55,759 nt of DNA from Catajapyx aquilonaris (taxonomy: Eukaryota). Of this stretch, positions 3,586-28,461 are shown in pieces. Positions within the stretch are counted from its first letter, which is position 1. Every line of letters starts with the position of its first letter. The stretch lies in contig JYFJ02000643.1 in assembly GCA_000934665.2 (NCBI GenBank), forward strand, positions 62,001-117,759, read 5' to 3'. Both the position numbers and the translations under genes were made by a program. Under the pieces are notes generated by a model. The model saw only the letters and a program-made list of their open reading frames with translations, was not told the DNA's origin and made no database searches.

Positions 3586-3830
3586 CTACTATTTTTCGGA
3601 TAACAATGTTTCAAATAACATTTCGGATAAAATTGTTTCAAAAGCAGAAAGTTTGTTTATATGTCCGCCTGTCCGGGCTACATAACCACTTTCGGATTAC
3701 TGAGAGTGCTGAAACTTGCCACTGATCGAAAACTGCACTTTTTGAGTCTAAATGGCCTTAAAAAATATAAAAATCTACTATTTTTTGGGATATCAATGAT
3801 TCAAATAATATAAAATTGCTTGAAATAATT
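3586..3830. repeat. Diverged ~55-bp direct repeat pair around a gtccgcctgtcc motif; probable non-autonomous TE relic
   Basis: ctactatttttcggataacaatgtttcaaataa at 3586 versus ctactattttttgggatatcaatgattcaaataa at 3775. Confidence 0.5.
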
Positions 3831-6000: not shown

Positions 6001-6238
6001 CCGTCAAACGTGGTGCGATTGTGCCAGGTGGGGTGAGATTGTGCCAGCGCATTTTTTTTGACAACAGTGCGCCCTACCGAAAATTTTACTCGTCATTGCC
6101 AACCTTGACCATCCTTTAATGTAGTGAAACATGCCTAAATTCGCTAGTTTACACCTGCTGCCAGTAGGGCGCACTGTTGTCCAAAAATGCACTGGCACAA
6201 TCTCACTCCACCTGGCACAATGTCACTACGTTTGATGG
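6001..6238. mobile_element. Tc1/mariner-superfamily MITE (238 bp)
   Basis: About 75-bp imperfect TIRs (ccgtcaaacgtggtgcgattgtgccaggtgg... / ...ccacctggcacaatgtcactacgtttgatgg) flanked by TA at 5999-6000 and 6239-6240. Internal repeated attgtgccag motif. Confidence 0.85.
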
Positions 6239-6978
6239 TATCGCACAAAATTACTTTCTTGGAGCTACGTACATTTGCAGGTAGTGACCAACCCACGTCC
6301 GAACTTGTCCAGTCGAAACCTAAACTGTCCCGGACTCAATTTCCTTTGTTCGACCCAACACAAATACAACACTATAGGAAATTGGGCATTCATTTCACAT
6401 GAAGCGGAGACATTGATCAGCGGTGTCTTTTACTGATTCGAGACACGATTGTTATTTGAGGACCTTGTAAGGGAAAGGGTCTTTCAGATGATCTGCAATG
6501 GATGAGGGTTCTGCTTTTCCCTGGAGAAAGTTTGGTCTTTCAAAGAGAGCTGGTATTTAGTACGTTTTATTACATTTTCTTACGAAATAAAATTGACAAG
6601 AAGTTGTAAGCATAAAAAATAAATTCATTTATCAGCGTTGCTGGTATATTGCAAAGTTTACCTGCACCTCTTTTAAACGCAAGCGAATTATTTTTTGTAC
6701 ACGCGAATGATGTAAGCCGTAAGAAACCGGTTGTTTCCACCCCTCCGATGTAATGTTAGGGTCTCTTGACATTGGAGGATGAAGATAGAAGGGTTAATCA
6801 CTGACACATTCGTTGGAATACACAGTATTGGAACATAACACTTTGTACTACAGCTGTACAGTTATCGTATATATCTGCGATGCTTCAGCCTTCTTATGGT
6901 TCACATTACTTCACACATTACAGAGAAAACTTGTTTATTTAAGAACGTGACATTTCAGCTGGTTTTTTTGTTGGACAA

Positions 6979-7221
6979 GGTCCAATGTCTCCATGATTTA
7001 ACGTGGCGTTAAGAGCTAACAGCAGTTAGGTTAAATGGGATATAATCTCGGTTTATGCAAACGAAATTTGAAATCTGTCAATTTTGTTAATGTTCAACCA
7101 AGTTAGCCCAGTTTTACGAACTCAGATTATTTTTAAAAAAATTTCGTCCTTTGAGTTGAAACATATGATCACTTAATTATAGTTAACTCTTAACGTCGTT
7201 AAAAGTAGGAGAAATCGGGCT
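6979..7221. mobile_element. Degenerate MITE, PIF/Harbinger-like
   Basis: Diverged inverted arms ggtccaatgtctccatgatttaacgtggcgttaagagctaac / gttaactcttaacgtcgttaaaagtaggagaaatcgggct, followed by TAA. Confidence 0.5.
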
Positions 7222-8893
7222 TAAGAACAAACAAGGTACTGACATGACAAATGGGGATACCTAACAGACAACATTTGAAATATAATTATCTCTTGATTAC
7301 TTCCCAAAATATACATCTGATAATATCAATAACGATTAAGTAAGTGATAATAAATGTACATCGTTTTTAGAAAACTTAAAATAAGAGTATGTATAGTAAC
7401 ATGAGCTGTACACCTGAATGAGAAGAGTCATACACACACGTTTGGCGACAAAAAAATAATTACCCAAACAATTATTTTTTTCTCTCCGAATGAGTTCAAT
7501 TTCAGAGTATACACACAGACAAAAGCGAATCCGCTACACACTATTACAGCTCGCATATGTTCCGGCTTTGAAGTAGAGGTCTCTCTGGCTTTGAAAAAGC
7601 AAATAACCCGTGCGCACAAAACCATGCAGCCTTTATATTGGTGATTGAGCTCCACCGTAGTTGAACCAACAATAAATAAACATCCTCATTTCAATTGCAG
7701 ACCTTTTGTAATCAATGGCCAAAATCCCCGTCACATAAACGGCCACGAGCTATTTCACAGTCATACATGTATTCCCTAGGAGACAAATATTTTTTCTGGC
7801 CAATTTACACTTCGTTAATATGCGTCAGTAATTGCACCGCGCAATAATTAACACGTATAGGACATGACACAACGTAAAATAATTGAAATTATATATGTGT
7901 GGTCTCCATTCCAATTATTGTGCTCTCTGTTTTAACATAATTACATCTTTATTTGTGTTCAAAAGGGGGGCCAAATTACACCACAGAGAATTGGTGAGAA
8001 CTTTCCTTATTACAAAAGGGTTTAATTGCTACAAGTGCGATAATCTACCTTGAGAGGATTATTTTATTTCAATTCACTTCTAGCTGGAGGGCGGTTTGAA
8101 ACTCATCGTTCAATTTGCGGCTACATGCAATAACGTTTAATGTGGGTTCACAACACTTGAACGTACCAATTTTGTTGCCTCCAAGAAAAAAAACCCCGAA
8201 ATTTTAATCACATTTAGTTGGCTCAGTTTTGCTTCAAATTGACACTTTTTTTGCGAAACCTGTGAATTATTCAGCCATACCATAATTAATATTCACTGAT
8301 CATATTAGTCGCAATATTGCGCGTTATGAAGTGTTCTTTTCTGTAGCATCCAAAATAGCTAATTAAAATAACACAAACCGCTTACTGATCCGGAAACTAT
8401 GCTGAACACGTACAATTTGGACACACGTCAAAAGATCAATGCAATCTGGCAAAAATTTCTAGCTATGGATGATGGAGTGATTGATTGAGTGTGGATGTGG
8501 TTTGGGTGTATGGAAATGGAATGCGGATGAAAGGTTCGGTTTGTGTGTGTTGATTGATGAGGTAGATGGGTCAGAAGGGTTAGTCCTGCGCTAAATATCT
8601 CTCAAAAACATGGAAGTACTATTGTCCTACTATACGGAAATACACCCCCCCCCCCAAAAAAAAAAAATCAGATAACTTGGTGACACAATTTGGCACGTTC
8701 CAGTCAGGCATCTTTTTGACACTTTGCAGCAACGTTTGGACATCCATTATTTCATTGTTACTAGAGTAATCGTTTAGTAGACACAATCGACTCCAATAAA
8801 GCACAACATTCAATCGAGCCGTAAAATGGGCCAGAAACTGTTTCTAACGCTTTCATAACAGGAGACCCCGAACTTTTACCTACTTTCCCAGAC

Positions 8894-8951
8894 GTGTATC
8901 CGCTGAAGGATAGGGTGTATCCGCTGAATGATTGGTGCCTATCCGCTGGAA
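8894..8951. repeat. Three-copy ~21-bp tandem repeat (gtgtatccgctgaa core)
   Basis: Directly visible. Lies about 560 nt downstream of the B2 stop codon, in the likely 3' UTR. Confidence 0.7.
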
Positions 8952-9513
8952 AGGAAATGGGGTAGGCTGGTGCAGCGTGCTCCTACCCCTTCCACATACG
9001 GTCTCCCATTACGAAAGTACTTCCGTCTCCAACTTTACAGGTCCTTTGACGCTAAGGTTGATATACAGACGTCCACAGGTACAGTGTGTTCCATCTCAAC
9101 GATCGCGATTTTTTCACTCTAGGCCAGTGATTTTGCACAAAATTTTGTAAAAGATGTTTTAAGAGGTTATCAAAATATTTGTTTCCAAAATTAGGTAGAA
9201 TCACGGTCTGGAAACTTCCCCTCTTATCGCGTGCCCGCATCACACGTAGGGAGAGGTGTTGCCGCTTCGGAGCTGGTGTAGCTCCCAAGTGAGTGGCGAT
9301 CCTGGCGGCGGACGAAGCCTCCCAAACCGCCAATTCAAATTGGAATACGTACGATTTTGTTCGAATGTCCGAGTCCTTGCAAGAAGGTCGAATGAGTCTA
9401 ACCACTGATCTCATGTCGAGAGTTCAACAATAATTCGTGGCTTGAATTTTCTATTCATAACTAATATTTTTGGTAACCACCACAAGCCTCTTAGTGTAAT
9501 TATTAGGGGGTCA

Positions 9514-9936
9514 TCAGACCGCGACATCCGAACATGGAGATGTACTGTCCACTGGAGAGTACGGCCCGTTTTTCTTGGCGTGATACACGAGCAGTTCCGT
9601 GGCACCGTTACCGTTGACCGATGTCCTGACAAAGGAAGAGTTGGATGCCCTGCAGGAGGATAGTCTGCTGCGATTGCTGCCAGTTCGGACACTGGTGTAG
9701 GTGGTCGCAGTTTGTGTCCTGTGAAGTGACTCGGCCATCATACCCGAATGAGCCAGGTTCCTCAGGACAGGGATCTTGACCAGCACGGCCCTGAAGCCCT
9801 TCCTGAAGTTGGTGTTCATCCCGAAGTAGATGATGGGGTTGTAGCACGTGTGGGACATGGCCAGCCAGTGGCACACGCACCACACGTACATCATTCCTTC
9901 CCAGTCGTTGAAGGCGGGGTATTGGTCTAGTATTAC
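9514..9936 (-). CDS. RYa-R: Terminal exon B2 of the GPCR (ECL3-TM7-helix 8-tail; 140 aa; isoform 427 aa)
   Basis: Acceptor tcctcctgcag|GTA ATA CTA. Reads VILDQYPAFNDWEGMMYVWCVCHWLAMSHTCYNPIIYFGMNTNFRKGF with NPxxY and a Ser/Thr-rich tail. Ends in tandem TGA TGA. Continues B1 with no gap relative to module A. Confidence 0.92.
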   Translation of the reverse strand, partial: VILDQYPAFNDWEGMMYVWCVCHWLAMSHTCYNPIIYFGMNTNFRKGFRAVLVKIPVLRNLAHSGMMAESLHRTQTATTYTSVRTGSNRSRLSSCRASNSSFVRTSVNGNGATELLVYHAKKNGPYSPVDSTSPCSDVAV

Positions 9937-9960
9937 CTGCAGGAGGACGTCAGTCACCTT

Positions 9961-10965
9961 TATCGAATATCGATATCATACATACAGAATAATATTGGTC
10001 TGAGTCTGTGTCTCTTGTTTGTCCGGAGTGAGTCATCATCTCTACTCAGCTAGGTGTATGTAGTACAACTACCTCTTGTACGGGCCTGAGATAATTATAT
10101 ATAATATTGCGGAACTGAAAGGTCGAATAGGTGACGTCCCATGGACATCCAAGTATGACCTCTCATGGATATATGAATATTTCGACGTTCTCACGACGCC
10201 CCATACACGTTGATGGATATTTACACCTTTCATCGACGTCATATGGTCGTCGTGTGCTATGTGGGTATGGTACAGTACTACGTGGACGGTTTGGGGTTCA
10301 CTGAAGTTTTTTTAAGGAATGCAACTGACAGTGAGTGCGCACCACAGTTCGCGCAGTGTGCACGATTGGCATTATCAATGATAGTTGGTAGCTCTCTGTG
10401 TGTATACTGCGCTGCCCTTATTTCCAACGCTACTCTTGGGGGAAACAAAATGGCCGACATTTTCGACGTTGCCCAAGCTCTCGAACAAACCTCAGAGGCT
10501 ACGGGGGTTAAAATTTATCATTAATTAATTGTCTTAATTAATGAAAATTAAATTACCAAATTAATAACTTATTATTATTATTATTATTATTATTATATTT
10601 ATGACGTCTGGGGAGTCGTAATTAACGAAGATTAAATTATCAAATTAATACATTATAAATTATTGTTACTATTTATGGCCTCTGGGGAGTAACTCTGGCT
10701 ACGTCGTTGTCAGAACAATGGAGCTGCGCGAGTGTAGGTGCGCATTTGGTTGCGCTCGTTAAAAAAATCATATTTAGTGAACCCTGAACTGTCCATGTAG
10801 TACCCTAGACCTCACATAGATGGCGTATCATATGCACACTACCGCCACTTTAAGGGGGGTGCGAGGGGTAGTGGTACTACATGCACCTAGTAGATGATGA
10901 CTCACCCGGACAAACATAGGCACATACGCAAGCAAATTGTATGCCTATGGCATCGATATTCTATA
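9961..10965. mobile_element. Nested foldback structure (two pairs of diverged inverted repeats); probable nested non-autonomous DNA transposons
   Basis: Outer arms ~9961-10076 / ~10863-10965 (tgtttgtccggagtgagtcatcatc vs gatgatgactcacccggacaaaca). Inner arms 10275-10356 / 10724-10803 (gtactacgtggacggtttggggttcact vs agtgaaccctgaactgtccatgtagtac). The centre holds an ~85-bp duplication and a (TTA)n tract. Confidence 0.75.
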
Positions 10966-13900
10966 CAGAAATCACTATCTGCCCTTGTTCTTCCGGACAT
11001 TTGCACATGAAGCACCAAATTAACCGAAAATTAGCAGTACATGCACCTAGCATGCTAAAAAAGGGTGCACATTGAAGCAAAGCACATTTAAAAGCGAGTC
11101 ATGCCCCTGCAAAGAGTATAGAAACCTGATGAAGAGAAGTAATTGCCTAGGTTGGGTCCAAAAGCTTTCCTATCAGCACATACACACAAAAAAAAGGTTC
11201 CTATCAGATAACTCCAGTCATTTTACGACGCAAAAAAAACCCTAGAAGAATAGTGGTCTCGGACTGTGATTGTCCTCGAACAAAAACGACCGGTCCACAA
11301 AGAACTACAGGGTGAGCCAAAAATGTGACCATGTCTTTTGACACCAAATGACCTAAACATGTCCCCAATATTCTGAGTGTGGACATTATCCAGTTTTTCT
11401 TTTCTCATCACTTGGCAAATGTTGGAGTACACACTATAGATGTGCTAGACTTAAAACCGGGAGTATCTGGATGGTCTCTTCTCTCTGCAGGAGTGGCAGT
11501 TGGGACATGTACCAGTCAGTGGGACATGATGAATCGAGCCCCCCTCCCCCCCAGTTTCCTTGTGTTATAAGAAAAAGCCGGACAAGTATAGCCTACTGGT
11601 GTAGATATATCGACTTACAGCACTCACTTTAGGCCTATCATCTCTCCTGTCTGTTGCATGCAGGATGAAACATGACATTGTGTCTGGGAGTAAATATGCT
11701 CGGAATATTGGGAGCTCGACCTCTTTGCATGAATATCAATATTTGTAGCTCGGATGCAGTCACTGAATCAGATGTAATAAACGCACGATAAAAAGCGTGA
11801 TTCGAGTAGACTTTTTCTCATTGGGCAGCGGGAAATGAGTTAAAAATTACTCAAATTGGGCCGGATACCTCAGTACGTATTTGCACTTTGCAGATAAATG
11901 ACTTAAGAGTTCAATTAATGGGACTGTCCTAAATTGACTCAACTTTTTTCCACTTTTGGTCTCTCCAACTCCTGAAATTGGACAGTGAAGAGTGTCCTTG
12001 GTTGCACCAAGTTTCTTCTTAGAACTTGTCTTTTCCCACCGGCACAAGGCAATCATTCTGCAGTGTTCTAACGTTACCACCATTATTACCATAACTGCTG
12101 AGGTCTCCGATTTTAAAGACAAACGTTCAGATTCCTCAGTAAACAGTTGAGTTGGCAAGGTGCTTCTATAAGAATGACTTGAATTTTTTTTTGGAAATGG
12201 ATCGAAGGGTGATTGGCTGACGGATACTATAGGTAGTTGGGATTTAGCCACAGCCGTTTGGAGACTGTTGAATCGGGATTTCTCCAAAGGCAAACCTGAA
12301 GGTGAATCTCTCGTTTGTTCCTCTCATACTTAAACGGAAATGGTGTGTGCCAGTACTCAGGGTTAATTATAATCTATGTACAATCTACTAAATCCTCCTA
12401 TAGAAACTGTAGCTTTCAAACTATAAAGCAACGCTCAATAACCCGCTTTGATTTCAATTTCCGAAAGCCCAAAATGAATGCAAATCTCAATAGACTTAAG
12501 CTCCTCTCAAAATCCGCACAAAAAAACACAACTCCTCTAAAAGCTTCATTCACACATTTTTCCCCAACCCCAAAGTGCAATCCCAGATGCAATTATAAAA
12601 AGCTGTGGCCTTAGGGTTGTATATACGTGCACAGCTTTTCAGAAAATGTCAGGAAAAGTTTGCTCAACTTGCTTTTTCAGCAAATTCTTTTTTTTCTTCA
12701 GGTGTGGCACAATCTGAAGAAAGTTTGGCTTCAAGTTTTGGTAACGCGATCTGGACGCATTAATCTCTCCAGCAACAAACTTGGGCTTATTCCAAGCGGA
12801 AAGCTCGGTTAGATATAGGCGTCACGTAACGCATTAAACAACTTGAATCTTAATCCTCTTCCTGGAAAATGGGCAACAAGGACAAGCCCATTTCGTGGAG
12901 AGGAAGCTATTCTTCAGATTCGTTTTGCAAAACTATGTATGGTTTTTCCACCTAGGCTGAGTGCACTCAGGTTGCCAAGGTTTTGGAAACTGAGGGGGGG
13001 GGGGNGGGGGGGGGGAAAAGATGGAGATTGCATAATGCATGAGGGGACTTGATGTGAAGCAACGAGTAATGTGGACGTCCATTCTTCTCTGTGGAACGTG
13101 CTTTTGCATCTATTTACACGAAAATAGTAATGGGAGACTCCACAGAGTTCAGTCAAGAAATATGACAGTTTAAAGAGACCGCAATTTTGGACAACATTCA
13201 AAACATCGGTCGAAAACGACAAAAGTTCGTTCAATTTTCTGAAGTGTTTTGAGTGCTTTTAACTGTTACATGGACTTGAATCGCCATTTTTGTGAGTAAA
13301 AATAAATTTCTTTAGTGATATCTCAGATTGTAAAACCTAAACGATTTGAGCTAAATATTCATGAATGTAACAGCCAATAATGCACTTACAAGTACTTAAT
13401 TGCCTGATACACATATTATTAACGTCGTTACCTTCGTATAATTAATGTCCCATATTGCAATAACGCCATCATACGCACCATAATTAAGTGTTTGAACTGC
13501 CATCATAAATGTACCAACCAACAGGACTATTTAACATGCCTGAAAAACCGCCCCCAGTAATTTTAATTAGCGGTTAGTTTATAGACATCAATTTTTTAAA
13601 AAACTAGAGGTGTTAGATATTGCTGTTTTTTTGGCCCCGCATTCCTAATAAGCCGAAAGGAGCACGCATTTTTTCCCCCCATAATAGTCCATTATATACT
13701 TCACCAAACTTCGTTAACGATGCAAATTCGGGCAGCCATTGGTGTTGCAGACTCGTAGCTTCGGGAAAGGCAACTGAGCGACTACTAATAAGAAGCCCTT
13801 GCACCCTACCGACAGCAGCAGACGTCAAAGCGACAAGCCAACATTCAATTACTTTTGCTCCCTGCCCCTCGGTATAATGGATTCTTATCCCAACATCCCA

Positions 13901-14260
13901 GGTTCAGATCACGATTAGCAACAAGGGTGTCAACTGAACTTTTAGAGCATCACAGCAGGGTGTTCCGAAAAAAGTGCATCCAAAATATGGGTGTCAGAGG
14001 ATCATTTTTTTGCGTTGGTGTCTGAGTTGCCAAATAATGTCATATAAGAATTGGCTCATTACCAACGTGCATGTAGTAGTACTGTCTGCCTGAGAGGGCA
14101 GCAGTGTGCAGAGAGGGAGAATGTGCCATCTGTTAGCACGTCCAAGTGGGAGGACAGTGTTGCCAAGTTAGTATCTGTATAAATCGATCTTCTGACCCCC
14201 CAATTTTCGTGACACCCACAGCCAGACAAAAAAAAGCGATAAGTCCATGCATATACTCAC

Positions 14261-14329
14261 CACCAGGGTGTTGAAAGGAAGCCAGCAAACGGTGAAGACG
14301 ATCACGACCATCACCATCATTTTGATCAT
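14261..14329 (-). CDS. RYa-R: Alternative TM6 exon B1 of the GPCR (69 nt, MIKMMVMVVIVFTVCWLPFNTLV)
   Basis: Read manually: acceptor ttccttttgcgtttgttgcag|ATG ATC AAA ATG ATG ... TGC TGG CTT CCT TTC AAC ACC CTG GTG|gtgagt donor. Canonical FxxCWLP motif, phase 0 on both sides. Confidence 0.93.
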
Positions 14330-17300
14330 CTGCAACAAACGCAAAAGGAAATGGAGCCATAAGTTGATACAAATCTCAATTTGCGCTCAGAGCTCGGAAT
14401 ACATTTCTTAAGTGTTTCGAGCAAGTTGACGAGAGAATCTTAAGCACTCGAGTTCGCTTTTAAGTAATCGTCGTTGGCGTCTCCAAGACCATATCCTTCC
14501 AAGAACGACGCCTGTGCTTTAGTGAAAAAAAGGCAAAAAAAAAAAGTTGGAAGCTCTTGATACCCCTTCTTCAAGTTTCAAAAGAATGGGTGAGTACAAA
14601 AAAAACGAAGATACGCATCTCTTTCTTCTTTACGATGCCTAGAGCTAAGATATATAGACATGTAATTAACTGTTGCGAATCGAGCCAAGTTTCATGTTGC
14701 CCTAAAAAAGGCTTTAAGATTATTAAAAAACGAGAGCCTCATTTTTTTAAACAAAATCTGTAATATTAGCACATGATTGCACTAGTTCGAAAGTTTGAAC
14801 TATTTGATTCCATGATGTAATAACACCAATTTCTGACATATTCATAGAGATTCAAAAAAATTCCGCATCGCAATTCGGTTCAATAGGTTTTGATCAGACC
14901 CTTTGCATATAACATTTTCCAGCAGATTCGAAGAAAAATTCTGCAATAACTTCCATCTGCGGTCTAATACAACATTGATGAGGAAGATCTCTTATCCTTG
15001 ACATGAGATTGAAAATACTTATATCCTTAGGGTTATGTTTCGGCACTAAATCTCAGCTGCACTGGTAGCCAAGGCACATAAGCTCCATAAATCCTGGCCG
15101 CTTATCACTTTCTATATCCCTGTGAGAGACATTGAGTGAATCGATGATGCGGTATAAAGAATATCCGCACCCGGATTTCACCAATTTCGTCCTTTTCCCT
15201 TCCAAAAATTATGGGTTTTTTTGGGTTGACTCTGCAAACTGAATTTCATTGCATTTAGGACTGGGGGAAAAAAGTCCAATTTTTGGTTGCAGAACAAATG
15301 GTCACCTATAGTCCTTGTAGACTTTGTCTTCAGCTTGAGCATTTTGATCGTTTGTATTTTTGGAACGGGAGATCCAATAGTTTTTAATGAACTAGGAACA
15401 AACATTGGAGTTCGTAATGACAAGTCTGGTTCTAAGAAGTCGATAATTAATCAGCCACGTTCTAACTCCGAAATGAATGAGGGAATAGGAAAAACACTAT
15501 TGTAAAGACAACCTGCGTTTGCAGGGGGGAAAACAGCCACTGGCAAATATTGCCTCTCTTTTTTTCCTATAACAGCATTGGTTGAAAACACGACAAGATA
15601 TCGTTGGTGTTAACAAATGGTACAAAGAGCAGTTTGAGTGACATTAAACGTGCAAATAAATTTTTAAATTATTTTTTCATCCGATTTAGCTATTGAAAAA
15701 GCACTTTGGATTATTGTTATGTTTCGCTTTCTGAACATATACAGTCAGAAAAAAGGCCAGTTGTAAAAGTAAGACTAACTCTTGCAGAATTGATAGTCGA
15801 CTCTCTTTCATACTGAATGGTTCTGCTCATTACGGCTGTCGAATGTACGTACAACAACCGAGCAGAAAAGAAGGAACAAACATTTCAGAATCCTATCTTG
15901 TAAGTAGCCCATTTAGATGAAAATTGAGCCATAGATTTCAATTCGTACAGTTTCCACTTCAGACTTAAAAAGGCAAGCCCTATTTACACTGATACTGGAA
16001 ATACAGTCTCCCTTCGCAATGCAGAGTCTGTATAGAGCATCTGAGCAAAAGGACTCACGTATGAAAGATAAAAATAGAGTTACATGCTGCTTGTAGTCCA
16101 GTTGAAGGCAAATAAGAATGCAAAATGAGAGAAAATTCGGAATTTAACCCTGCTTCACTATTTTGATATTAAAATATTTGCACTTAGTGTAAATATTTTA
16201 AACTCAAAATACTGTCATTTTTTTCTTATAGTGTAACCTTATCTGAAATTCTAACATAGTCAAGTAGCCGAATTTTAGGCTATACCCACGCACGTTTTAA
16301 ACTCATTTTTTCATTCATTAATATTCCCAGCACTCCCGAAACCAATTAAGAATGTTAATGTTCCTCCCAAAAACTTATTACAACTCAAGACGCGTACAAT
16401 AAAGAGCTTGATCATCTGCGGAGGCGAAGAGAAAGTGAGGGGGAAAAAACATTTGCAGAAAAATCCCTGGAGAATTTTCTTCCTTTACACCCATCCTTCC
16501 GAAATATACACTACTTATAAGGAATGGATGTGGGTGGTATAGATCGAAGGGTTCACATTCGCCTTGTTGAGCCGACCTAAAGAAGCAATCTCATCATCTC
16601 GTAGGATGAAAAGCCCCTGCGGTTAAATAAGCGGCAAGATGATATATATACAGGGTATGAAAAGAGCAGCTAAAGAAGACTCTTCAGTGGGATCACTGCC
16701 ATTTCAGGTTTCTGGACTTGTGATATTGAAGGGCAAGCCACGGGCACGAAGTCTATTACATTCTTCTTTTTTTACAAGTCAGGGTATATATTGCAACCTG
16801 TACTCATAGGAACACACTTTATGTCAGGGATTATTTTTTTTTGCATTCACTTGAAATTGAAATTACACTGTAAGTATCAGAATCTTCACTGGACATTACA
16901 GAGTATTCAGATTGCCAGGAAGGTTGAAAGCAGCCAACTCTTTAATTCCAAAAATATTTTATATAGGAAGTAAATATTTAAATGAAAATAATCTGGCTAT
17001 AGGAAGTATGATGCATGTTCCTATAGAGGTGATATCCTGTAAAGAATCGAGTCCTGTTCAATGTATCTCGGTTTCCATTTGCCTATTCTCTACATGTAAA
17101 TGGCTACCAAAGATACATCGAAACTTCCTGAGTAAAAAATGAGTTTGCTAAAGGTGCACACTTTCCTACGCTACATTTGAGATGCATAGAATTCACCCAC
17201 CATTTTTTTCTACCGCTTCTTGACTCTATAAATGGAGGGGAAAGTCCCTCCTCTTCTTCTTTCAGAGAGATCGATCTGAAGTCAAATGCTTTTCTTTTAT

Positions 17301-17662
17301 CAGACCCGAATAAATCGATTCCTTCAGACATATTGGTTCCGTTTAAAGAGTGCTCCTCAGGCAGGGTGAAATATTCTGACAGGTTTTTGAATGGAAACGA
17401 TACCCCCCAACTCTCTTATTTTTTCAGAGTGTGCATGCTTCTGATGCTTCTTCCGACCAGACGAAGAGCCATCAGTGTGCGTTCTCTCGTGTTATTTTAT
17501 CTCAAATCAATATTTTCAGAACGAAGTGCAAGATATGGAAGACTGATGCATTGTCAATCCGAAAATGAAAAATAAACATGGTGAAGCACTAAACAAGAAA
17601 AAAGCGGGTCGTGACAAAATATGATTCAATTTTACATAACGTTACTGATTGTTCTGGTCCAA

Positions 17663-18127
17663 TCATTTTGAAGGAGAAAGTGGAATTTGAACTTCAATAT
17701 TGTTAGTAACATAGCAAAAAAAAAAGCGATAGGACAAGACAAGGACGTACACAGTGGATCTGTCGATGGCTGGCTCCGGGCCCTTTCGACCACTTCTGAA
17801 GGTAGATGCTGTGTTGAGATGTATGGACGTGTAGACAGAGTGCGGCGATGCCTGTCCAACTCCTGCGTACCGGTACGGCACCCGGATACACGGACAGCAA
17901 TTGAGGGCCTGGTAGAAGCCCAGTCGAAACTTGGAGTTCATCATGAAGTAGATGAGCGGGTTGTAGCAGGTGTGAGACATGGCCAGCCAGTGTACCAAGA
18001 ACCAAACCACTTTCATGTACCGGAATTGAAGGACAGCTGGGCACAAGTCCATCAGAATCAGCAGGCAGTTTAGAGGAAGCCAGGCCAAAGTGTAGGCGCA
18101 CACGCAGGCCACCATCATCTTCACCAT
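17663..18127 (-). CDS. RYa-R: Alternative terminal exon A of the GPCR (TM6-ECL3-TM7-helix 8-tail; 154 aa; isoform 418 aa)
   Basis: Long polypyrimidine tract ending gccttcag|ATG GTG AAG ATG ATG. Reads MVKMMVACVCAYTLAWLPLN...HWLAMSHTCYNPLIYFMMNSKFRLGF, continuing KRK in phase 0 and open to a stop at 17663. Confidence 0.88.
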   Translation of the reverse strand: MVKMMVACVCAYTLAWLPLNCLLILMDLCPAVLQFRYMKVVWFLVHWLAMSHTCYNPLIYFMMNSKFRLGFYQALNCCPCIRVPYRYAGVGQASPHSVYTSIHLNTASTFRSGRKGPEPAIDRSTVYVLVLSYRFFFCYVTNNIEVQIPLSPSK

Positions 18128-19732
18128 CTGAAGGCAGGGCCAAAAGGGGAAAAAGAAAGGGACAGTTTGCTGACAAGAACAGAAGATGAGGATAGAACTG
18201 GGACACGAACATGCAACACTCAAAGCAACAGGGCGTTATGTTGGACGAAATATTGCGCGAAATTCTGAATCACCCTGTAGAGCCAATTACGTCTCAAAAA
18301 CTCACATTTGTTCAGTTAAAGTCGGTTAAACCAAAGAACGGTCTGACGTCACGTTCAGCCCCCTCCTATCATGTGCGCATGCTCAGAAAACATGGCTGGT
18401 GTGACGTCAGATCGTTCTTTGCCTTACAGGACTGATCTTGACATGTACAGGTCGTGCTGTCATAGCCCCTATTGTCAAACCTAGGTGGAAAAAAAGCGGC
18501 GCGCTTTTTTAATTGCGCGAAAAAAAACGGACGTTCCGCCTCATTGTAATATGTAGATAACGCGTTGCAAATGGGATAGATTGTGCCAGTAATGGCAACA
18601 CCCACAGCGCGTGTCGGTCGGGGCCACAAACCGCTCGGGACATGCAAATGGGACATTGTTTTTGCGTTTCAAAAGAGCTCTGCACCAGTAGGGGTTGGGC
18701 ATCAGTTGATGCCCAACCCCTCTGAAGGTCAGCCTTTATCCTTACAACTATGCAATGTTACAGGCACCTTTGTAATGCAAAAAGGCCTGCACATCAGGCG
18801 CGAATAAAGCTTTAAAAATATTCGATTTTTGAGCACTAACTTTTTCTCATAAAAATCTTATGGAACGGCTCTGCGCCGTCTGTCTGTGGACAGGTATCAG
18901 GGCCTAAACGGTATGAGATAGCAACAAACAGTTTTCGGATTTTCATGGTCAACTTCCGGTGACCGGTCACTTCCGGTTTAGCGGGTTCATTTTGTTAGCC
19001 AATGTCAAATAAGTTTTCTTGGACTTCTTGGCAACGGGAAATGAGTAGAATCGCATCGTGTCGCATCGTGTCGTATCGTATCATATTCAACAAAGTTGTC
19101 CGTCTCACATCCCGCTGCCCAATGAGAAAAAGTATACTCGAATCAGCGTGACTTGCCAATCTTGTCACTTTTGAACACATTGTTTTAACGGTCTCCAATC
19201 GGGATAAACAAACAAGCAAGCAAATAAGTAAATAAACAAATTGACAATCCAAAGTAATGCAGATTAGACATTTCAGTTGGTGAATAAACAAGGGAGTTGA
19301 ACCGTCGCAAGTTTAATACATTACCTGGAAAAGCAATTCGGCGAAAAGCTTCTCTCTATCGCCAATTTTTACGAGCGTATTTCTCAGTAACCAAGGAGAT
19401 ACAACCACTGGAGGAATCCAGGGGTGTAATTGAAGGGCTTGGTATATAAAAACCAGTGTCCCCTCGGAGTCCAAAAGAGGATTCCGGAGGACTATAAACC
19501 AAGCAAATAAGCAACATGATTTAAGGTCTTGATTTCGGAAGCAAATGGCGCATTTTAAGCTGGCGGATGAAACACAAAAAAATCACCCGACAGAAACACT
19601 TAGCAATTTTTACAAACAAAAAAAAAACTGAAGAAATTTTCGCAAAAGCTAATTTGGCGAGCTCCTCACGTCGCCCGCATACAAACGGAGCAGATGCTCT
19701 GTTCTCAAACGGATTTTCGGGCCAGCAGATAT

Positions 19733-19748
19733 TCGCCCCCTGGAGGCA
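19733..19748 (-). promoter_or_regulatory. CTCF-like motif (ttgcctccagggggcga)
   Basis: Close match to the CCxCCAGGGGGCG core. Motif match only. Confidence 0.3.
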
Positions 19749-21217
19749 AAATGGGAGTCACATTTCAGATGTGAACTCTTGGAGAATGAAGAACTATTTT
19801 CTGGTGGGTGCCACTGGCATGCCCATGACCTTTTCTGACCCAACCTCGAGGCGCTAATTTGGTCCGGAGGTTTTGGAGTAGTTGAACTCGCAAAGTTATT
19901 ACGCGCATTCATGATGATTTATTAGACGTGGCCTCTACAAGAGCGAGGTGAAATTATGAGAATTCCGAGCAAGCTGGACCACAGAGGATGGCGATTCAAA
20001 TCAATAGAGATGCTAATAATGTGGCAGACTCCGGGCATGGAGTAAACAGTCTCATGTAATTAACTCAAACATACTTTCACAAATGACGAGTTGAAAATTA
20101 CGGAAAAACTATTATTAATTTTCTTCATGCAATATAAGCTCATGCATTTGGATTAAATTCCGAATTTATTAACTATTACAATACTATTACCTAACATCAT
20201 GAATAAACATTGCACACTTTCAAATATCCTGCGGCACTTTACGAAGCGGATGCATAATTCTTAGTGTGAGTTATAGTTACAAAAGGCTAACACTTGCACG
20301 CATACTAATGAACCATTTCTTTTCATTAACGCCCCCGAAACTATACATCCTGCATCAAATTTCTTAAAAAGCCATAAAAAAGTTCATAAATTATGCGCAA
20401 TTAATATGAAGATCAATTGAGACGCATTTTCCTAACCTAGATGTGTCGGATTTAGATTTGTTTAATGTTTTATATTTTTATTTTATAAACAAATGCGGCA
20501 CTAACACAATAATTAAACATCTAACATTTATCTAGTACAAGACAGTGCCATATAATTAGGCCATTAGGCATATCTGGGTTAATATTAAGCATTAGTTGTT
20601 CAATGAATTCCGATACCTACAAGTAGAAATTCCGGATTTAAATGAAGAAATTAATATCTCAATTTTGTTAACACACTTCCGGTGACATGGTTATTTTTAC
20701 ACCTATAAGCTATAACAAAGCCCACGTAAACTAGCTTCTGCCACAAACACGCTTTCATTTCCTGAAATATTAAATTTCGTATCCACGCTCTTAAACCACT
20801 TTTAGGCAAATTTCCAGGTTAGTTAACTCCCCCCTAACAATGCAACTTCCAAGCGAATTATCCCGGATTTGACCCCCTGCACAGTCTCATATCAGAACCA
20901 ATTTTCCATCCGACAAGAGCACCTTAGTCTCCCTAGTTAAATTACGCGGGACAAAATCGGGGTAGGGCGGCGTTATTTTTTAATCACACCTTATTAGCCC
21001 TTGCTAGTAAAAGGTGCTCCGATAAAAGCGGAGGGATTAAAGCGTGACATCCTCGGCTTCAAGTAGGGTCATGACGAGAGAGCTAAAACCTTTTTTACTG
21101 CCTGTAAATATTGCATCCCATGTTCCCGTGTGTCGAGTTTCATCTCACGTAGCTCACTTTGCAAGAGAATTTCTATTTCCTGCTTCAAAAATGGGAGGAT
21201 GAGGATGGTCCAAGAGA

Positions 21218-21345
21218 TCTAACCTAACCTAACATAATATAACCTAACATATCCTAAGCAGGGAGCATATACTACATGTACGTAGTATATGCTCCCTGTC
21301 CTAAGCTAACCTATCCTAACCTATCCTAACCTATCCTAACCTAAG
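21218..21345. repeat. Degenerate interstitial (CCTAA)n = (TTAGG)n tract
   Basis: ctaacctaacctaac...ctaacctatcctaacctatcctaacctaa, interrupted by a 40-bp palindromic insertion. Confidence 0.75.
21259..21298. mobile_element. 40-bp TIR-only insertion (17+6+17) with 7-bp target duplication; P-superfamily-like footprint
   Basis: cagggagcatatactac-atgtac-gtagtatatgctccctg, flanked by tcctaag at 21252-21258 and 21299-21305. Confidence 0.75.
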
Positions 21346-24315
21346 AAGTAAAATGATAGCAGACTTGTGGACAATTGATTCTTGTTCTCTGTGTCTAAAT
21401 GTCGATTCCAAATTTCCAAACACATGAGGATGATTTATTGTAAAAGGGAAGTGGAAATGACGTCCTCTAAATTTTTGAAGACGGTTGCTAAGATAAGGTG
21501 TAAATACATTTCTGTCTTTCCTAAGGCCCGGAGATTGGATTGGAAGCTGGAGTCAATATAGCGGAGATAATTAAGACGTCGAGACGTTGTTTCTCATTAC
21601 AGACAATGGCAAGGAAAAATGATCAGTAACAGGAAGAAGTTTTCCGGCCCGGTTTTTTGGACACTGTAATTTGCGAGGCTGGAGATGGAGATGGTTTTAA
21701 AATACAATGCATCTCATTTCGTCTTGAAGTCAGCAACGATGTTAATTACACATCGGGGATGTAATATATCAGAATCTTGAGCGGACTGAGAGATATTTTG
21801 ATAATTACTTATAAGAAAGATGAGATTGACATCATTTAAATATCGCATTCCACGTATTACCAGTATGTAAATTAATGCCAATATTATTTCAGAATTTTCT
21901 TACGAAAATTTGCAAATATTGAATTACGTTAGTAGTAGCCGTTATAGTATAATAAGTTACATGCTACATTACACTCTCATTACGCTTTAGACACAATAAT
22001 AGAAATGAAAAGGCGGGATCTCTTGCTTTAAAAGGGAAGGAAACTACGCAGATGCCTTTCCAGCTTCGATTCCACGTGCGCAAAAAAAAGGTATTGAAAT
22101 CGGCAAACCCAAACAAATGCTCCATTAAGAGTAGGCCTAATGCATACCCCCTGAAAGTAATGGGGTGGTGGAAGAGACAATGACTGCAGGGGACTGTCAT
22201 TGGACTGATTCAGATTTAACACGTCGAGAATTCTAACAATAACAAAAGGGAAAACCTCAAGGGAAACCCGATAGAATTCAATAGCAAGGCACTCGAAATA
22301 ATTCAGCATTGTTAGGACACGTTAGTAAAAAGTGCGAAGTTCGTTCAGAAGACAAGATTCGACATGTTGAAAAACAACTGGTATATAAACTCCTTAAGAC
22401 CAGGAGCTTTTCCTTCCAAAGTCTGCCTGTCTAATTAAGACGTAAGTCAAGAGGGATTACACCTACGCTAACGTCTTCATTACACTTTCAGTGGGCCGGG
22501 AAATTGCTTGGGGAAGATAAATTGAAATTAATTAGCAATTCTCTTTTCTCGCGTGTTCAGATGCCATGTGTTGACGCGAAAATGCTTTTCCTTCACATAA
22601 AGTGCAAGCTAAAGCCTGACGTTACATGTAATTGCAATTTCAATAGTTCAAAGCCTCGTTGGCCAAAATGCAAATTTTCCAATAGCGCTTTAGGGTTAAG
22701 AAAATTTAAAGCGGGCCGCGCAGTGCATACAAAATATTTAATTAAATGGAAGGAAGGACGGAAAGCTCGGTTCCTACTGAAGTATTCGCTTCAACGGAGA
22801 CAAAAGGGGACGAGGCACAATGAGCAGCATCAATTGGAATCTTCATGTTATACTTCTTCTTGATTCCAGATGAAGGCGCGTGCTTACACTTTTTGAGCTC
22901 TCCCAGTTTTGCAAAGAAAAATTGCATCCCTTTTGTAAATCACTGATTTGATTTCACAGACGACTAATCCGGAAAACTTGGAAGAAATTCCGGCTGGCAA
23001 ACGATGCCAATATATCTCTTTGTTCTTGTAAGCTTGTACAGTACAGTATAATTCTCGTGAAGATTGTAAGATGAATCGCAATAAAATTTCGACACCGTCT
23101 TCTAATTGTAATTGTTAACTAAAGTTAGCTGTTAGCTGATGTTAACAAGCTAGTGAAGGAATCTTGAATTGAGCTGATTATTTTTAAAGCGGTTACTGTT
23201 AGAAGCTATCAAAAATATTAAGTGGAGGATACAAAATTTCCGAGGGGAATATCTGACGTTTCTATAAATCAATTATTTGATTTCGGAACAATAATCTTTG
23301 GATGCCGTTGCTACAGGGGGGGGGGGATTCCATTTGCATATACCAGGAGGTTGAAGCTGTTGTTAATTATTCGACATCGAATTGTAGGCTACTTATTATC
23401 ACAGCTTACAAAGTGGGTTCCCCAGAATTTGCCTTAAAAGCGGCTCATGTGGGTTTCGGTATAGGATTGAATTGAGCAGTTTGTGGTGGAAGTGGAAAGC
23501 CCATCTAATTAAGCATACTTAAAGTAGGCGGGGGCTTACAGGTAATGTGATTGACACAAGGTTTAAAACCAACACTACTAGAGACGGAAGGATCGATGTT
23601 TTTGGAGGGAAGCTGCTTATTATTTCTCACCAAGCAGTGGTCGCCCTGTGCTGCATTAACAAGGAGGGGGGAGTCCAAGTTTTCTTAATAAAGCGGGCAA
23701 TAATGAATGTTGAGGTCTCTCAGCGGTCCGGATACAGTTTTAGAACTAGACGTCTGCCGCAAAACCCATCCTGGTTGAGGCCAACAACGATATTGAAATT
23801 CCTATATCCAAGCCTCTTTCCAACTGCAAGAATTTTCACGGATGATGCTGAGGAGAAACTAACTATATCACCGGACGTACGAGGCGTGGCCCTGAGAATT
23901 GCTAATTATCCCGGAGAGGACATTATGAAACGTATTTAGCGCCAGAATAGAGCGATGTATGAGAGCTGTCAGCGTGGCTCCGAAAGTCACGCAGGAACTG
24001 TGTACATTAGGTTAATCTACTCCTGATGCTTTCATTATAAACAATTATTACGAACACGAGAGGGTCTGTACTTAATTGGGTACGAGTTGTATATATACAG
24101 TGAGAGAGTTGCGCATTTTTTTGTTCCTGGTATACACTGTACAGTACAGTATCACCTCGTGCGGTTGAAACTCATGAGATATTTCATGCGACTCTGCCTT
24201 TTAATAATTTTAATTGCATTATTTATTATTTCTTGTATTATAATATTATGATATTAGTTTATTTGTCTCGTTTTATTAATTACTAATGAGCAATATTATT
24301 AATATACTATCGATA

Positions 24316-24625
24316 CTAGCTGAGGACCCGTTCTTCACACGGGGATTGATAAGGGGAGGTGGGGAGGAGAGTGGAGGACCGCCATCTGTTATGGGAGTAA
24401 AATTACCTGAGATGAATATCAAACCCGATTGTAAAACACGAAAAAAAATCATAAATTTTGGGCATCTAGACTTTTAAAAAGTGAGGTTTTCGGACTTTTC
24501 TTAAATCAGCTAAGACATCTGTTTGCCAAGTTTCAGTCCTCTTAGAGGTGTGGAAGTGGGTTAGGTAGCCGAGACATACAAACAAACAGAGAAACTTACT
24601 GCTGTATGCATAAAAATATTGTTGA
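24316..24625 (-). mobile_element. Short non-autonomous Helitron (Lep1-like architecture)
   Basis: Minus-strand 3' end cccgt-gtgaaga-acggg hairpin, then tcctcag-CTAG|T. A (ctgt/ttgt)n tract lies near the 5' end. The 5' A|TC boundary at 24625 is tentative. Confidence 0.65.
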
Positions 24626-27600
24626 TAATTTTATTTCATACTCTTATTGGTAATATTTGGTTCAGTACATGAGTTGTGCTTATTAGGCTTATTATTTTGC
24701 TGATGTTATGTTTATAATATGACTGTATTTAATAATGGCATGGCTCATGGATTGTGTGGGAGTATCTATAGCTTGGTAAAATAAAGCCAATCGAAGGTAA
24801 CCACAAAACAACAAGCTCGAAATATATTCTTTGCCGAAGCCAAATATTGAAGTAGCCTGCGGTTTCTTAACATTCTGAGACGCATGTAAACTATCCCTTC
24901 CCTTCGCCCTATCCTTGAACTCGTTTCCGTTTGATTGTAAACAAACAGCAACAAACAGATTACCCTCTTCCTGCTTCTTCTTCTCTCTGTGTATCAACTG
25001 CTTTTGTATTGTAGAAATCGTTGTCCACATTCTGCCTTTTTCTATTTCCTTGATGCCTGCTTTACTAGAAACTGGACAACAAAGGGTAATAGTTTGATTA
25101 ACAAAGGAGTGAATTTCAGATTGATACCCACATGACTGTCATCATCAAGGTCATCATTCACTGCCATAATTAGTAACAAACAGTCTTAAAAATGAACTAC
25201 TTGTAGAGCTATTGAAATAATCCGATTTCTCCATAATCAACCAAAACACATCACAAACCAGCCTTTATCAAGTGTTGGGAGATTAAGGCTAAGTACTCTC
25301 TTGTTTGAATTGCACGACTGATGCTACATATTGTGTTTCACTGAGCATTATTGCAAAGGGAAACCTGCTGCAACCTACAAAACATACGATCCGATGCTCC
25401 TTTGATCAAAGTACTTTGATGTCCTTAGAAAAGAGACCTCCGATCCCACGTAATGATCTTTCACCGGTTCAGAACCTGTCAGCCCCCGATTTTGTAGAGA
25501 TCACAATAACTAGATAAAGAAGAACAGTACGACAAAAGCATTTTACAACAATTATTTCCGCAACTGCGTAGCTTGAAGAATTCCTTCGTAACACAGTTAG
25601 AGATATAAAAATAAGGCAATCAATAATTATCTCGACCATCAACTGCAGGCGGTGGCAATGTAAATCAATTCAAATAGTTAATGAATCCAGAGCTTAAAGG
25701 GCTCCTCTTTTGACTTTCATAAGTTTGCCAAACTAATGTCATTACAATCCACAGCATTTGAAAGTGTGCAGTAAGTAAGTAAACAGTAAAACCGGCCCAA
25801 AAATTTTCGCCAATCGCACATCCGTAGAAAAGAAGTGCATTTGTTCACCGGAATAATCGACGTGAAATGTCCATTTTGCAAGCTCAGCTTATGGCACCCC
25901 AATGATTTGCAATGCGCGCTTTAATAACCCACGCATATGTGACCAATTTGCTTCTCACAACGGATGTTACGCCTTTACACTTGCCAAGCTGTATGTAAAA
26001 TGGATTTTGCAACACGCCCATCGCATGCTGCTACGGATATCCATCCAGGCTGTATTGTTGCATTATTTATCAGCTGCAAAGTGTGCACTTGTTTTTTTTT
26101 TAAAGAATATTACTATCAATATTTTTCCTTGCAATTCTGCCAACTTGAGTCAAAGTCTCAATTTATTCCGAACACGAAGCCTTCATACGAAACTTTCTCT
26201 TTGAAAACACTGATGTGAAAGGTGGCAACAAACATTGCACAGTCAACACACCCCATATGTAGTGATAACCTTCCTTTGTACAAGTCCAGAAGGATTGTTG
26301 ACAATAGTATGAGTCAACACACTGCGTCTGATTAGAACAGACAAAAAACGGATCGAAACGGATATTGTATTTGCGCTTTAATTACTACGTTGCCTCAAAG
26401 GGTGTTTAATAATTTTACAGATCGTCTTACTGTAGATAAGTAAATGCGGGCAGTCGCAACAGAAAAAAACAGCTTGAGTTACATGCAGTTGGATCCGAGA
26501 CAACAAAATATTGGAGGGGGTTTGGAAGTGGGGGACTTTTTTATAGCATCAGGGAGAGCTTGTATGGTCGCTATAAAACCTTCCTATAGCCCCGATGCTC
26601 TTCCAAACAGACTCAAGAACACCTGAGATGAGCCTAATACTGTTCTGAAGGCCTTGCAGGCCTGATGGAACAAAATCCGCTTATGTCCTGCTTCTTGCTG
26701 AATTATTTACATATTCATATGTTTGCAGTAAAAAAATATGACTTTTCATGTTATAATTCCTGGAAGCAACGTTACAGTGCAATAATTCCTTCTCAGTGAA
26801 ACACTCGTGTTGTGAAGTAAATGATGCGATCGAAGTTTGCAGCAAAAGTTGAAGGCATAAAGGGAAGTGATTATATCGTGACGTAACTGACGAGTGAGCC
26901 TTTCCATAGAGCCGGATAATATTATACTGTTTTACTTGCATAGAAAAGCAGACAAAATGTGCTTTCATTTTCCCTTTCCAGAGATATTTGCATGCATAAT
27001 GTTAGAAAATAAATTTAAGCCCTCACCTATACGTGCGGCAGCTACATTGTTGAGGATATGTTTTTGTTTATTATCAACAAGAATTTAATTTTTTATATAC
27101 AAAAAACGTAAAAGACTAACAAATGCAAAAATGTGACATAATTTGAAGCCTTGTCAAATCTGAAATCGCAATTTTTCGTAAAAATAATAATATTGGCATT
27201 CCACAATTTCTTGTGACGATCCCAAATTAATGACCCCCCATCCCAATTTGACACTTGACATTTAGCCATGTGCGTGGGCACTTTCATTCTCAACACATGA
27301 AAATCGTTTATTGCCCCTTATACATCCCCCGTTCCACCATGTATTACCTCCCTACTTACGTTTTACTGTACGCATTCTCCAGGCTTTAACCCTGACTTTA
27401 AAACCCGTACATAAAACCAGCGTCTGCTTTTATCCGGATGCGGCCTACTTTTAGAGGGCCTGGCGTTTAAAACGCGACTGAAAAAACGACGGGGGGGGGG
27501 GGGNGGTTTACAGCAACCTAAAATGTACGGACAGTAAGCCCAATGTTGTATCAGTTTTCTGGGGAAATTATTCACGTTTTAAATACAGTGGGTGGAATTT

Positions 27601-27669
27601 TTGTCCCACTGCTAGTTATTGCTAACTTAGCAGTAACTAGAAGAGTGCTAAGAGCCTCTGGTTCCTTAC

Positions 27670-28461
27670 CTTTCTCTTTGTTCGTGCCATCCTCTGGTCT
27701 CTGTTGTCCTCAGCTTCTCCTGGAGGTTTCTTTCCCCAAACCACGAAGGCAATTCGGGTATAGCTGAACACCAGGACGAACAATGGTAAGAAGTACTGAA
27801 GGCCCATCAACGCCATGCTGTAGTAATACCGTTGTTCATCTGAGTCCCATACCTCCCCGCAAATGTACCGCTCGTGATGTACGAACCACGGATCGGGTTG
27901 GTGCAGCTTGGTCACGATGGCCACTGGAAGGGCGGTCAGTATGGCCACGAGCCACACTATCAGTATGATCAGCTTGGCCTGAAGATGTGTGACCCTGTGT
28001 CTGAACGGGTACAGTATGGCCATGTACCGGTCCATACTGATAGCCACGAGTGTGTACGCGCTGACAAACACAGATACAGCCTGAGTGTACGACACAATCC
28101 GGCACATCTCCTCACCGAACAGCCAGTACTGCAGGAGAAGTATGGACACGAACGAGAACGGTACGCAAAACACAGTCATCAGTATGTCCCCAACGGCCAG
28201 GTTGACTATGAAGTAATTTGTGACTGTCCGCATTCGACTGGACGACAAAACTATGTAACACACAAGTCCGTTTCCACATAGTCCGAACACGAATATGGTG
28301 CAGTACAGCAAGTATATGGCCACCTGAAACGCTGTCGAAGCCCTCGTTGGTCCGTTCCATGGCTGCTCACACTTGCACCATCCTGTACTGTTAGTTTCGT
28401 TCCAAGTTCCATTCCAGTTCCATACCAGATCGTCACACGGACACGTCCAGTTGGTCTCCAT
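27670..28461 (-). CDS. RYa-R: RYamide/luqin-type neuropeptide GPCR, shared coding exon (N-terminus, TM1-TM5, ICL3; 264 codons)
   Basis: ORF with class A motifs GNGLV (TM1), RMRTVTNYFIVNLAVGD (ICL1/TM2), W-x-FGxxMC (ECL1/TM3), DRY, YFLPL (TM5) and ICL3 PPGEAEDNRDQRMARTKRK, typical of RYamide/luqin receptors. Start context acaagcATGG with an in-frame upstream TGA. Ends at phase-0 donor AAG|gtaagg (GT at 27669-27668). Confidence 0.93.

Follow-up and report, generated by a model that had tools for sequence, protein, structure and literature searches.

In this study, we found that a 55,759-nucleotide (nt) stretch of the Catajapyx aquilonaris genome (contig JYFJ02000643.1, positions 62,001 to 117,759; hereafter the window) very probably holds one RYamide-type G protein-coupled receptor (GPCR) gene, in which a single exon for transmembrane helices 1 to 5 (TM1-5) is spliced to either of two old paralogous 3' cassettes. 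These cassettes, modules A and B, each encode TM6, extracellular loop 3 (ECL3), TM7, helix 8 (H8), and a C-terminal tail. An earlier note on this DNA had proposed one gene with a shared TM1-5 exon and two alternative cassettes, and in all likelihood this proposal is correct, since it is strongly supported by the breakpoints of receptor pairs in Cherax (isoforms X1 and X2), Parasteatoda, and Ixodes. As judged from sequence, the cassette design is shared with other arthropods, in which it is conserved, and public annotation already encodes it as isoforms, or mis-encodes it. The cassette switch looks like an old, overlooked route to two receptor subtypes from one gene.

Gene anatomy and receptor identity

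Exon 1 runs from an ATG at 28461 to a phase-0 donor (AAG/GTAAGG) at 27670, and its 792 nt encode 264 amino acids (aa) ending in KRK. Module A begins behind a strong, pyrimidine-rich acceptor (ccttcag/ATG at 18127) and encodes 154 aa before a TGA stop at 17665-17663. Module B, 163 aa as a whole, is divided by a phase-0 intron at the border of TM6 and ECL3, where module A has no intron. Its first exon, B1, lies between an acceptor (tgcag/ATG at 14329) and a donor (GTG/gtgagt at 14261), and its second exon, B2, extends from an acceptor (ctgcag/GTA at 9936) to a stop at 9516-9514. The positions that the earlier note gave for the single phase-0 TM1-5 exon and for both modules are correct to the base, and its description of canonical splice sites and open frames holds as well: all five junctions are canonical and phase-compatible, and both cassette frames are open. 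The predicted products of exon 1 with A and of exon 1 with B are 418 and 427 aa, exactly the lengths it had given, and the exchanged part makes up 37-38% of the protein. The features are collected in Table 1.

Table 1. Elements of the predicted two-cassette receptor gene and its surroundings, in window positions
Feature	Position	Strand	Remarks
Shared coding exon 1: N-terminus, TM1-TM5, and start of intracellular loop 3 (ICL3)	27670..28461	(-)	7tm_1 match; sole TM1-5 match in the window
GT of the single 5' splice donor (AAG/GTAAGG)	27668..27669	(-)	predicted to be used by both cassettes
Intron from exon 1 to module A	18128..27669	(-)	9,542 nt, GC 0.40
Module A: one-exon TM6-ECL3-TM7-H8-tail cassette	17663..18127	(-)	divergent, "A-type"
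Donor-like GTACGT in the A tail	17745..17750	(-)	with an AG 59 nt downstream a possible mini-intron; speculative
Interval from A stop to B1	14330..17662	(-)	A 3' untranslated region (3'UTR) and/or intron; GC 0.37
Module B exon 1 (B1): cytoplasmic two-thirds of TM6, through CWLPFNTLV	14261..14329	(-)	23 codons, phase 0 at both ends
Intron dividing module B at the TM6/ECL3 border	9937..14260	(-)	
Module B exon 2 (B2): TM6 end, ECL3, TM7, H8, tail	9514..9936	(-)	140 aa plus TGA
Poly(A)-like hexamer cluster	7948..8208	(-)	1.3-1.6 kb downstream of B stop; consensus matches only

With six full-length arthropod RYamide receptors as tblastn queries, the window gave one TM1-5 match (28.5-27.67 kb) and two TM6-7 modules. 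As the earlier note had concluded, there was no second TM1-5 exon on either strand of the 55.7-kb window, including 27 kb upstream, all other tblastn matches having E >1. Likewise, no receptor-like open reading frame (ORF) was found by tblastn in the intron that separates exon 1 from module A. The only Ns in the window are three single bases (13005, 27504, and 54521), so that there is no assembly gap at the locus. Each of these three Ns lies within a proline or glycine codon run of the ORF translations, which suggests a homopolymer, and each is probably a base-calling ambiguity rather than a gap.

Exon 1 matched Pfam 7tm_1 at positions 1-196 (E 1.3e-49), module A at positions 201-260 (E 3.8e-8), B1 at positions 201-222 (E 4.8e-4), and B2 at positions 240-260 (E 1.1e-3), and exon 1 together with either cassette spans the class A GPCR profile from TM1 to TM7. 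The W-x-P motif of TM6 and the NPxxY motif of TM7 are intact in both cassettes (AWLP and NPLIY in A, CWLP and NPIIY in B). At E<=1e-10, exon 1 matched 726 proteins. Among the best 120 of these, the named ones are arthropod proteins, mostly called RYamide receptor(-like) or neuropeptide Y receptor, at 45-66% identity, and those called RYamide receptor are 55-66% identical to exon 1; the names stem from the automatic annotation of the source databases. In its TM1-5 part, exon 1 fell inside the arthropod RYamide-receptor tree, and the nearest solved structures are those of NPY2R, NPFFR1/2, OX2R, PrRPR, and NK3R. By these matches, the gene is classified as an arthropod RYamide-type class A receptor.

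Cassettes A and B across arthropods

Modules A and B share 39 identities over their first 71 residues without indels, precisely as the earlier hand count had it, and 41 over the first 80. Of the two, B is evidently the canonical cassette and A the divergent one. Among the best 120 exon 1 matches, all 69 receptors with a TM6-7 match scored higher against B than against A. In tblastn, B1 is 57-80% identical to arthropod receptors, and the B tail carries TATTYTSVR, comparable to NTYTTYVSVR or NTYSTYTSVR in tick and spider receptors. Module A has a distinctive TM6 motif, ACVxAYTLAWLPLN. In Ballesteros-Weinstein numbering, Ala6.47 is present in all eight A-type cassettes and Leu6.51 in seven of them (window A being included in this signature), against Cys6.47 and Phe6.51 in all ten B-type cassettes. 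Common to A and B are His7.39 and the identical HWLAMSHTCYNP core of TM7, and the differences lie in TM6 (6.47 and 6.51, adjoining the toggle Trp), ECL3, the outer TM7 turns, helix 8, and the tail over its full length. The short arrestin phospho-code, in the form quoted in PMC9624432, has three overlapping matches in the B tail and none in the A tail.

Both cassettes bear signs of constraint. The GC content at third codon positions (GC3) over the first 76 codons (TM6-H8) is 0.79 in A and 0.87 in B (B1 plus the start of B2), compared with 0.65 in exon 1 and a GC content of 0.37-0.41 in the introns. If stops occurred as often as in the neighbouring intron (0.054 per codon), a run of 154 open codons would arise with a probability of 1.9e-4. 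Furthermore, module A has orthologues. With module A as HMMER query, 1,603 proteins matched at E<=0.001 and 288 of them at E<=1e-10, and no match reached E<=1e-30. The best matches were short ORFs that start exactly at the cassette start and carry the A-type TM6 motif, and name look-up and a second search recognised them as decapod, from Petrolisthes, Eriocheir, Cherax quadricarinatus (isoform X1), and Penaeus vannamei, in the last case an "uncharacterized protein" made up of nothing but the cassette. In the cassette tree (IQ-TREE, 84 rows, 76 columns, LG+C20 model with posterior mean site frequencies), window A and six decapod A-type cassettes (these four and two from further contigs) formed a clade of seven members with support 100/96, in which the end branch of window A is short (0.16, versus 0.66 for window B). 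Thus the earlier suggestion that A and B are old duplicates, both kept by selection, is strongly supported by the comparison, and module A, with coding-type codon bias in its core and membership in a decapod clade, does not appear to be a relic.

The same switch is encoded in other arthropods. RefSeq isoforms X1 (P0272) and X2 (P0365) of Cherax quadricarinatus, which lie on one contig, are identical over residues 1-298 and then continue with an A-type and a B-type cassette, respectively. The X1 cassette is the orthologue of window module A, in the same receptor family and with the same breakpoint, and X2 was recovered as a member of the Procambarus/Homarus cluster. Parasteatoda tepidariorum X1 (P0072) and X2 (P0071) share 283 identical residues and diverge at the same point. 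A contig protein (P0274) matches Ixodes ricinus P0332 residue for residue from 15 to 261 and departs from it thereafter, and Dermacentor X2 and I. ricinus show the same cassette switch between species. In a scan of 188 full-length proteins, 10 pairs were at least 95% identical over the 150 aa that precede the cassette and less than 75% identical within it, and apart from the pairs already named these include orb-weaver spiders and Eriocheir (A-type) versus four B-type contig proteins. In the relatives, the conserved KRK is immediately followed by the breakpoint, where TM6 begins, and the whole TM6-TM7-tail block is exchanged. All these pairs are computed models or assembled contigs of Decapoda and Chelicerata, groups outside which the window gene falls in the TM1-5 tree.

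The intron at the breakpoint appears to be conserved as well. Among the best 120 exon 1 matches, 41 of the 51 without a cassette end no more than 40 aa after the KRK boundary, and 28 of these 41 have V as the next residue, which is what a GTN intron would give if read through; this argues for a conserved intron position. These truncations suggest that gene prediction goes wrong where a cassette has to be chosen. Since an uninterrupted ORF across such an intron position implies a spliced template, the records of the relatives argue for the existence of RNA of both joined forms, in ticks and crabs at the least. Dermacentor andersoni P0278, annotated as "uncharacterized protein isoform X1", contains in its first ~250 residues a wrong-frame receptor including the first cassette, and then the second cassette in frame. 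This wrong-frame first cassette is 36% identical to an out-of-frame translation of window module A (E 5e-8), and the succession of a wrong-frame and an in-frame cassette indicates that the model transcript holds both cassettes in tandem. Three proteins were rejected as evidence of tandem cassettes in insects: Homalodisca P0005 has a near-identical partial repeat in a "LOW QUALITY" model, and P0193 and P0172 are other receptors or duplications.

It is conceivable that A or B belongs to a second, neighbouring receptor gene, with a TM1-5 exon of its own that the assembly lost or that is located beyond the window. Malacostracans and chelicerates have several RYamide-receptor paralogues, and in Penaeus vannamei an A-type cassette (P0273) is annotated as a stand-alone 329-aa "uncharacterized protein", with a 328-aa "RYamide receptor" (P0390) on the same contig; these two P. 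vannamei entries are probably one gene split in annotation. We consider a second gene very improbable, however, given that the tblastn search of both strands, 27 kb upstream included, gave only one TM1-5 match, that the window has no gap beyond its three single-base Ns, and that A is placed, in the same orientation, between exon 1 and B. Moreover, in Cherax, Parasteatoda, and Ixodes, an identical N-terminal part carries both cassette types.

Two observations concern the internal structure of the cassettes. Melipona P0098 lacks exactly 25 residues of the first half of TM6 that are present in Frieseomelitta P0107, which suggests that bees have the same TM6 mini-exon as B1. Decapod A-type cassettes and tick cassettes appear as single uninterrupted ORFs.

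With regard to age, the TM1-5 tree (66 rows, 244 columns, from a quick search) put exon 1 beside an ostracod, without resolution, and outside three supported groups, namely Malacostraca (98), insects (95), and the chelicerates together with myriapods (98). By this position, the gene most likely comes from a further pancrustacean lineage, neither insect nor malacostracan. Because exon 1 lies outside Malacostraca and yet module A is orthologous to decapod A-type cassettes, the A/B duplication predates the malacostracan split. In a second malacostracan paralogue group, the cassette is B-like and branches as the sister of malacostracan B (96/92), which fits a later whole-gene duplication. Insect cassettes in the trees are all B-like, except for two psyllid cassettes of unstable placement (P0270 and P0128, from Cacopsylla and Cyamophila). 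In the C20 tree these grouped with the A clade (98/81), and their TM1-5 branch is very long (1.31); this grouping is uncertain, as they have Cys6.47 and an H8 like that of window B, and it is possibly due to long-branch attraction.

The relation of module A to the "xCV-type" cassettes of chelicerates and myriapods is a lead rather than a result, because the tests used 76 columns without outgroup, with long branches and a group that was named after seeing the data. In the free C20 tree, A stood apart from these cassettes. When the A clade was forced together with 21 chelicerate and myriapod xCV-type rows, the tree was 3.67 log-likelihood units better than that of the free C20 search, and the approximately unbiased test gave a p value (p-AU) of 0.62. 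An LG+F+G4 search placed A beside a Strigamia cassette (ultrafast bootstrap 94), within the xCV group (91). Stand-alone xCV-type ORFs were rejected as evidence for insects, the named ones all being from mites. From these results it is tempting, albeit tentative, to speculate that the two-cassette RYamide receptor is ancestral to arthropods, with both types kept in one gene for more than 500 million years and the A/xCV-type later lost in insects. One type, A/xCV, might then comprise window A, decapod A, the centipede cassette, tick X2, spider X2, and mites. The other, B/TVV, might, with similar reservation, comprise window B, insects, malacostracan B, and the second cassettes of ticks and spiders, with the common tail NT-x-TTY-x-SVR.

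Predicted isoforms and transcript ends

In the proposed mechanism, splicing of the donor at 27670 to the A acceptor at 18127 would give a 418-aa receptor, and skipping of A, with the same donor joined to B1 (14329) and then B2 (9936), would give the canonical receptor of 427 aa. Both products would be the same in the N-terminus, TM1-5, ECL1-2, and the first part of ICL3, and would differ from TM6 on. In peptide-bound structures of class A receptors, the pocket is lined by TM6, ECL3, and TM7. Since His7.39 and the TM7 core are common to both cassettes, the amidated C-terminal end of the peptide would be expected to bind alike in both isoforms. Differences would rather be expected in the upper pocket (6.51, 6.55, 6.58, and ECL3), at position 6.47, which adjoins the toggle Trp, and in desensitisation. 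The two isoforms may also be expressed in different cell types.

Several points weigh against two functional isoforms of one gene. We infer the use of both junctions in this organism from gene anatomy and relatives, of which Cherax, Parasteatoda, and Dermacentor contribute computed RefSeq isoforms. Any difference between the isoforms in peptide potency or selectivity, or in G-protein and arrestin handling, is a prediction from the cassette sequences. Window B stayed outside the malacostracan B clade in the free tree, and the constrained grouping was not rejected (p-AU 0.37). The pairwise ratio of nonsynonymous to synonymous substitution rates (dN/dS) between A and B is 0.42, with dS ~1 and thus near saturation, a value compatible with constraint and not decisive. 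The tail of A has a GC3 of 0.49 (0.63 in B), and its last ~30 codons are T-rich, including a run of ten T, so that part of the predicted A tail may be noncoding and the true A C-terminus is uncertain. Lastly, no AATAAA is found within 3 kb downstream of A, where poly(A)-like hexamers are limited to two copies of ATTAAA, which start at 16946 (+717) and 15388 (+2275). There is also no convincing donor after the A stop, the one GTRAGT hexamer in the interval (at 16058, 1.6 kb away) being at chance level, with shuffles averaging 1.8. The sequence thus gives no clear indication of how an A transcript would end.

A donor-like hexamer within the A tail was examined and gave no ground for a claim: the 59-nt mini-intron that it would open shifts the frame, and its branch-point-like TACTAAC is only 9 nt from the AG.

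Some of these points would also suit module A as the leftover of an old partial duplication, not spliced or spliced only as noise here, in a gene that makes only the B receptor. The missing AATAAA and the composition of the A tail are what a leftover might show; besides, every comparable receptor resembles B, and many annotated arthropod RYamide receptors have one cassette only. Nevertheless, we regard this explanation as improbable. A leftover is at odds with the open frame over 154 codons, with the GC3 of the TM6-H8 core and the intact W-x-P and NPxxY motifs, and with the strong acceptor. It is also at odds with the short end branch of A in the well-supported decapod clade, whose cassettes are joined to TM1-5 in the Cherax and Eriocheir records.

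A different question is how the two isoforms would be produced. Rather than an alternative terminal exon with its own poly(A) site, A may be an internal exon that is included or skipped. Its stop would end translation, B1-B2 would then serve as 3'UTR, and there would be one poly(A) region past B. This variant keeps both isoforms, and inclusion versus skipping of a stop-bearing exon A is a live alternative, though we think it somewhat unlikely. It would accord with the tandem cassettes in the Dermacentor P0278 model transcript, which is, however, a computed model. It would also accord with the position of all AATAAA hexamers downstream of B (starting at 8068 and 7953, next to ATTAAA starting at 8208, 8141, and 8026). 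On the other hand, splicing from A to B1 would need a donor, and the interval offers only the single chance-level GTRAGT; a stop so far upstream of the last junctions also risks nonsense-mediated decay. In either variant, we favour one gene whose TM1-5 exon is joined to A or to B.

As for the surroundings, no other conserved-looking gene was recognised by eye among the ORFs of at least 110 aa in 1-9500 and 28600-55759, where no further search was made, and the surroundings of the receptor, with ~40% GC, seem to be poor in genes.

Relation to known receptor systems

RYamide signalling is among the least understood arthropod neuropeptide systems, and for crustaceans a 2021 crab paper states, in its accessible text, that nothing is known about RYamide bioactivity (PMC8449533). 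According to the accessible parts of the surveys, one RYamide receptor is counted per species (PMC6158917; bioRxiv 10.1101/2025.10.17.683104), and most arthropods have a single RYaR according to the same 2025 Aedes preprint. If the two-cassette gene is real, most non-insect arthropods would have two receptor subtypes hidden in one gene, and the two would differ in the very parts that encode peptide binding, the activation switch, and desensitisation. Deorphanisation assays would then need both isoforms cloned, and the reading of knock-down experiments and the annotation of gene sets would be affected. The gene would also be a natural chimera for studying how TM6-TM7 tune an RF/RY-amide receptor. 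Its interest would be greater if the cassette types prove pan-arthropod. Should the ancestral origin considered above be true, the count of one RYamide receptor per arthropod would be wrong by a splicing-encoded subtype.

The hint of novelty in the earlier note stands in part. Computed isoforms of this kind are already present in arthropod annotation, and ETHR-A/B and OAMB-K3/AS are analogues. On the other side, a literature search that did not extend to subscription journals and PDF supplements gave no paper that reports a switch of TM6-TM7 for RYamide or luqin receptors. No such switch appears in the accessible text of a 2020 luqin review (PMC7041311), a termite and locust genome-mining paper (PMC4237046), crab and lobster surveys (including PMC6158917 and PMC8449533), or the 2025 Aedes preprint.

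The design is not that of strict mutually exclusive internal exons of the Dscam type: A and B have no shared downstream exon, each has its own stop, and A is one exon and B two. Drosophila RYa-R belongs to the same receptor family, and its isoforms PA, PB, and PC, which arise by alternative splicing, have alternative C-termini with differing candidate arrestin-binding sites (PMC9624432, accessible text). There the differences are described for the C-terminal tails, and no TM6-TM7 exchange is seen in that part of the source. By cut point, the window gene equals Drosophila OAMB-K3/AS, in which an alternative last exon makes the isoforms differ from ICL3 on, one acting through Ca2+ alone and the other through Ca2+ plus cAMP (PMC2650798, accessible text). 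OAMB, however, is a biogenic-amine receptor described in one insect, and deep conservation of its cassettes is not claimed in the accessible text of that paper.

The design itself is that of ETHR-A/B, one gene with shared 5' exons and two alternative 3' exons leading to their own C-termini. In the accessible parts of the sources, this arrangement is described as conserved across arthropods, with two separate clades, differing ligand sensitivity, and different expressing neurons (PMC8175484; PMC3510462). The window gene belongs to another receptor family, its module B is divided by an extra intron, and the exchange starts at TM6 rather than at the end of TM4 as in ETHR, where it affects ~60% of the protein. 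Like ETHR-A/B, it has one 5' part in common to two paralogous 3' modules, and each module has an acceptor, an open frame, and a stop to itself. As with ETHR-A/B, its cassette types tend to form separate clades across species, a grouping well supported for the A-type and not rejected for window B with malacostracan B. By analogy with ETH1/ETH2 and ETHR-A/B, and provided that the ancestral origin holds, the two subtypes could fit different RYamides of one precursor or differ in arrestin handling.

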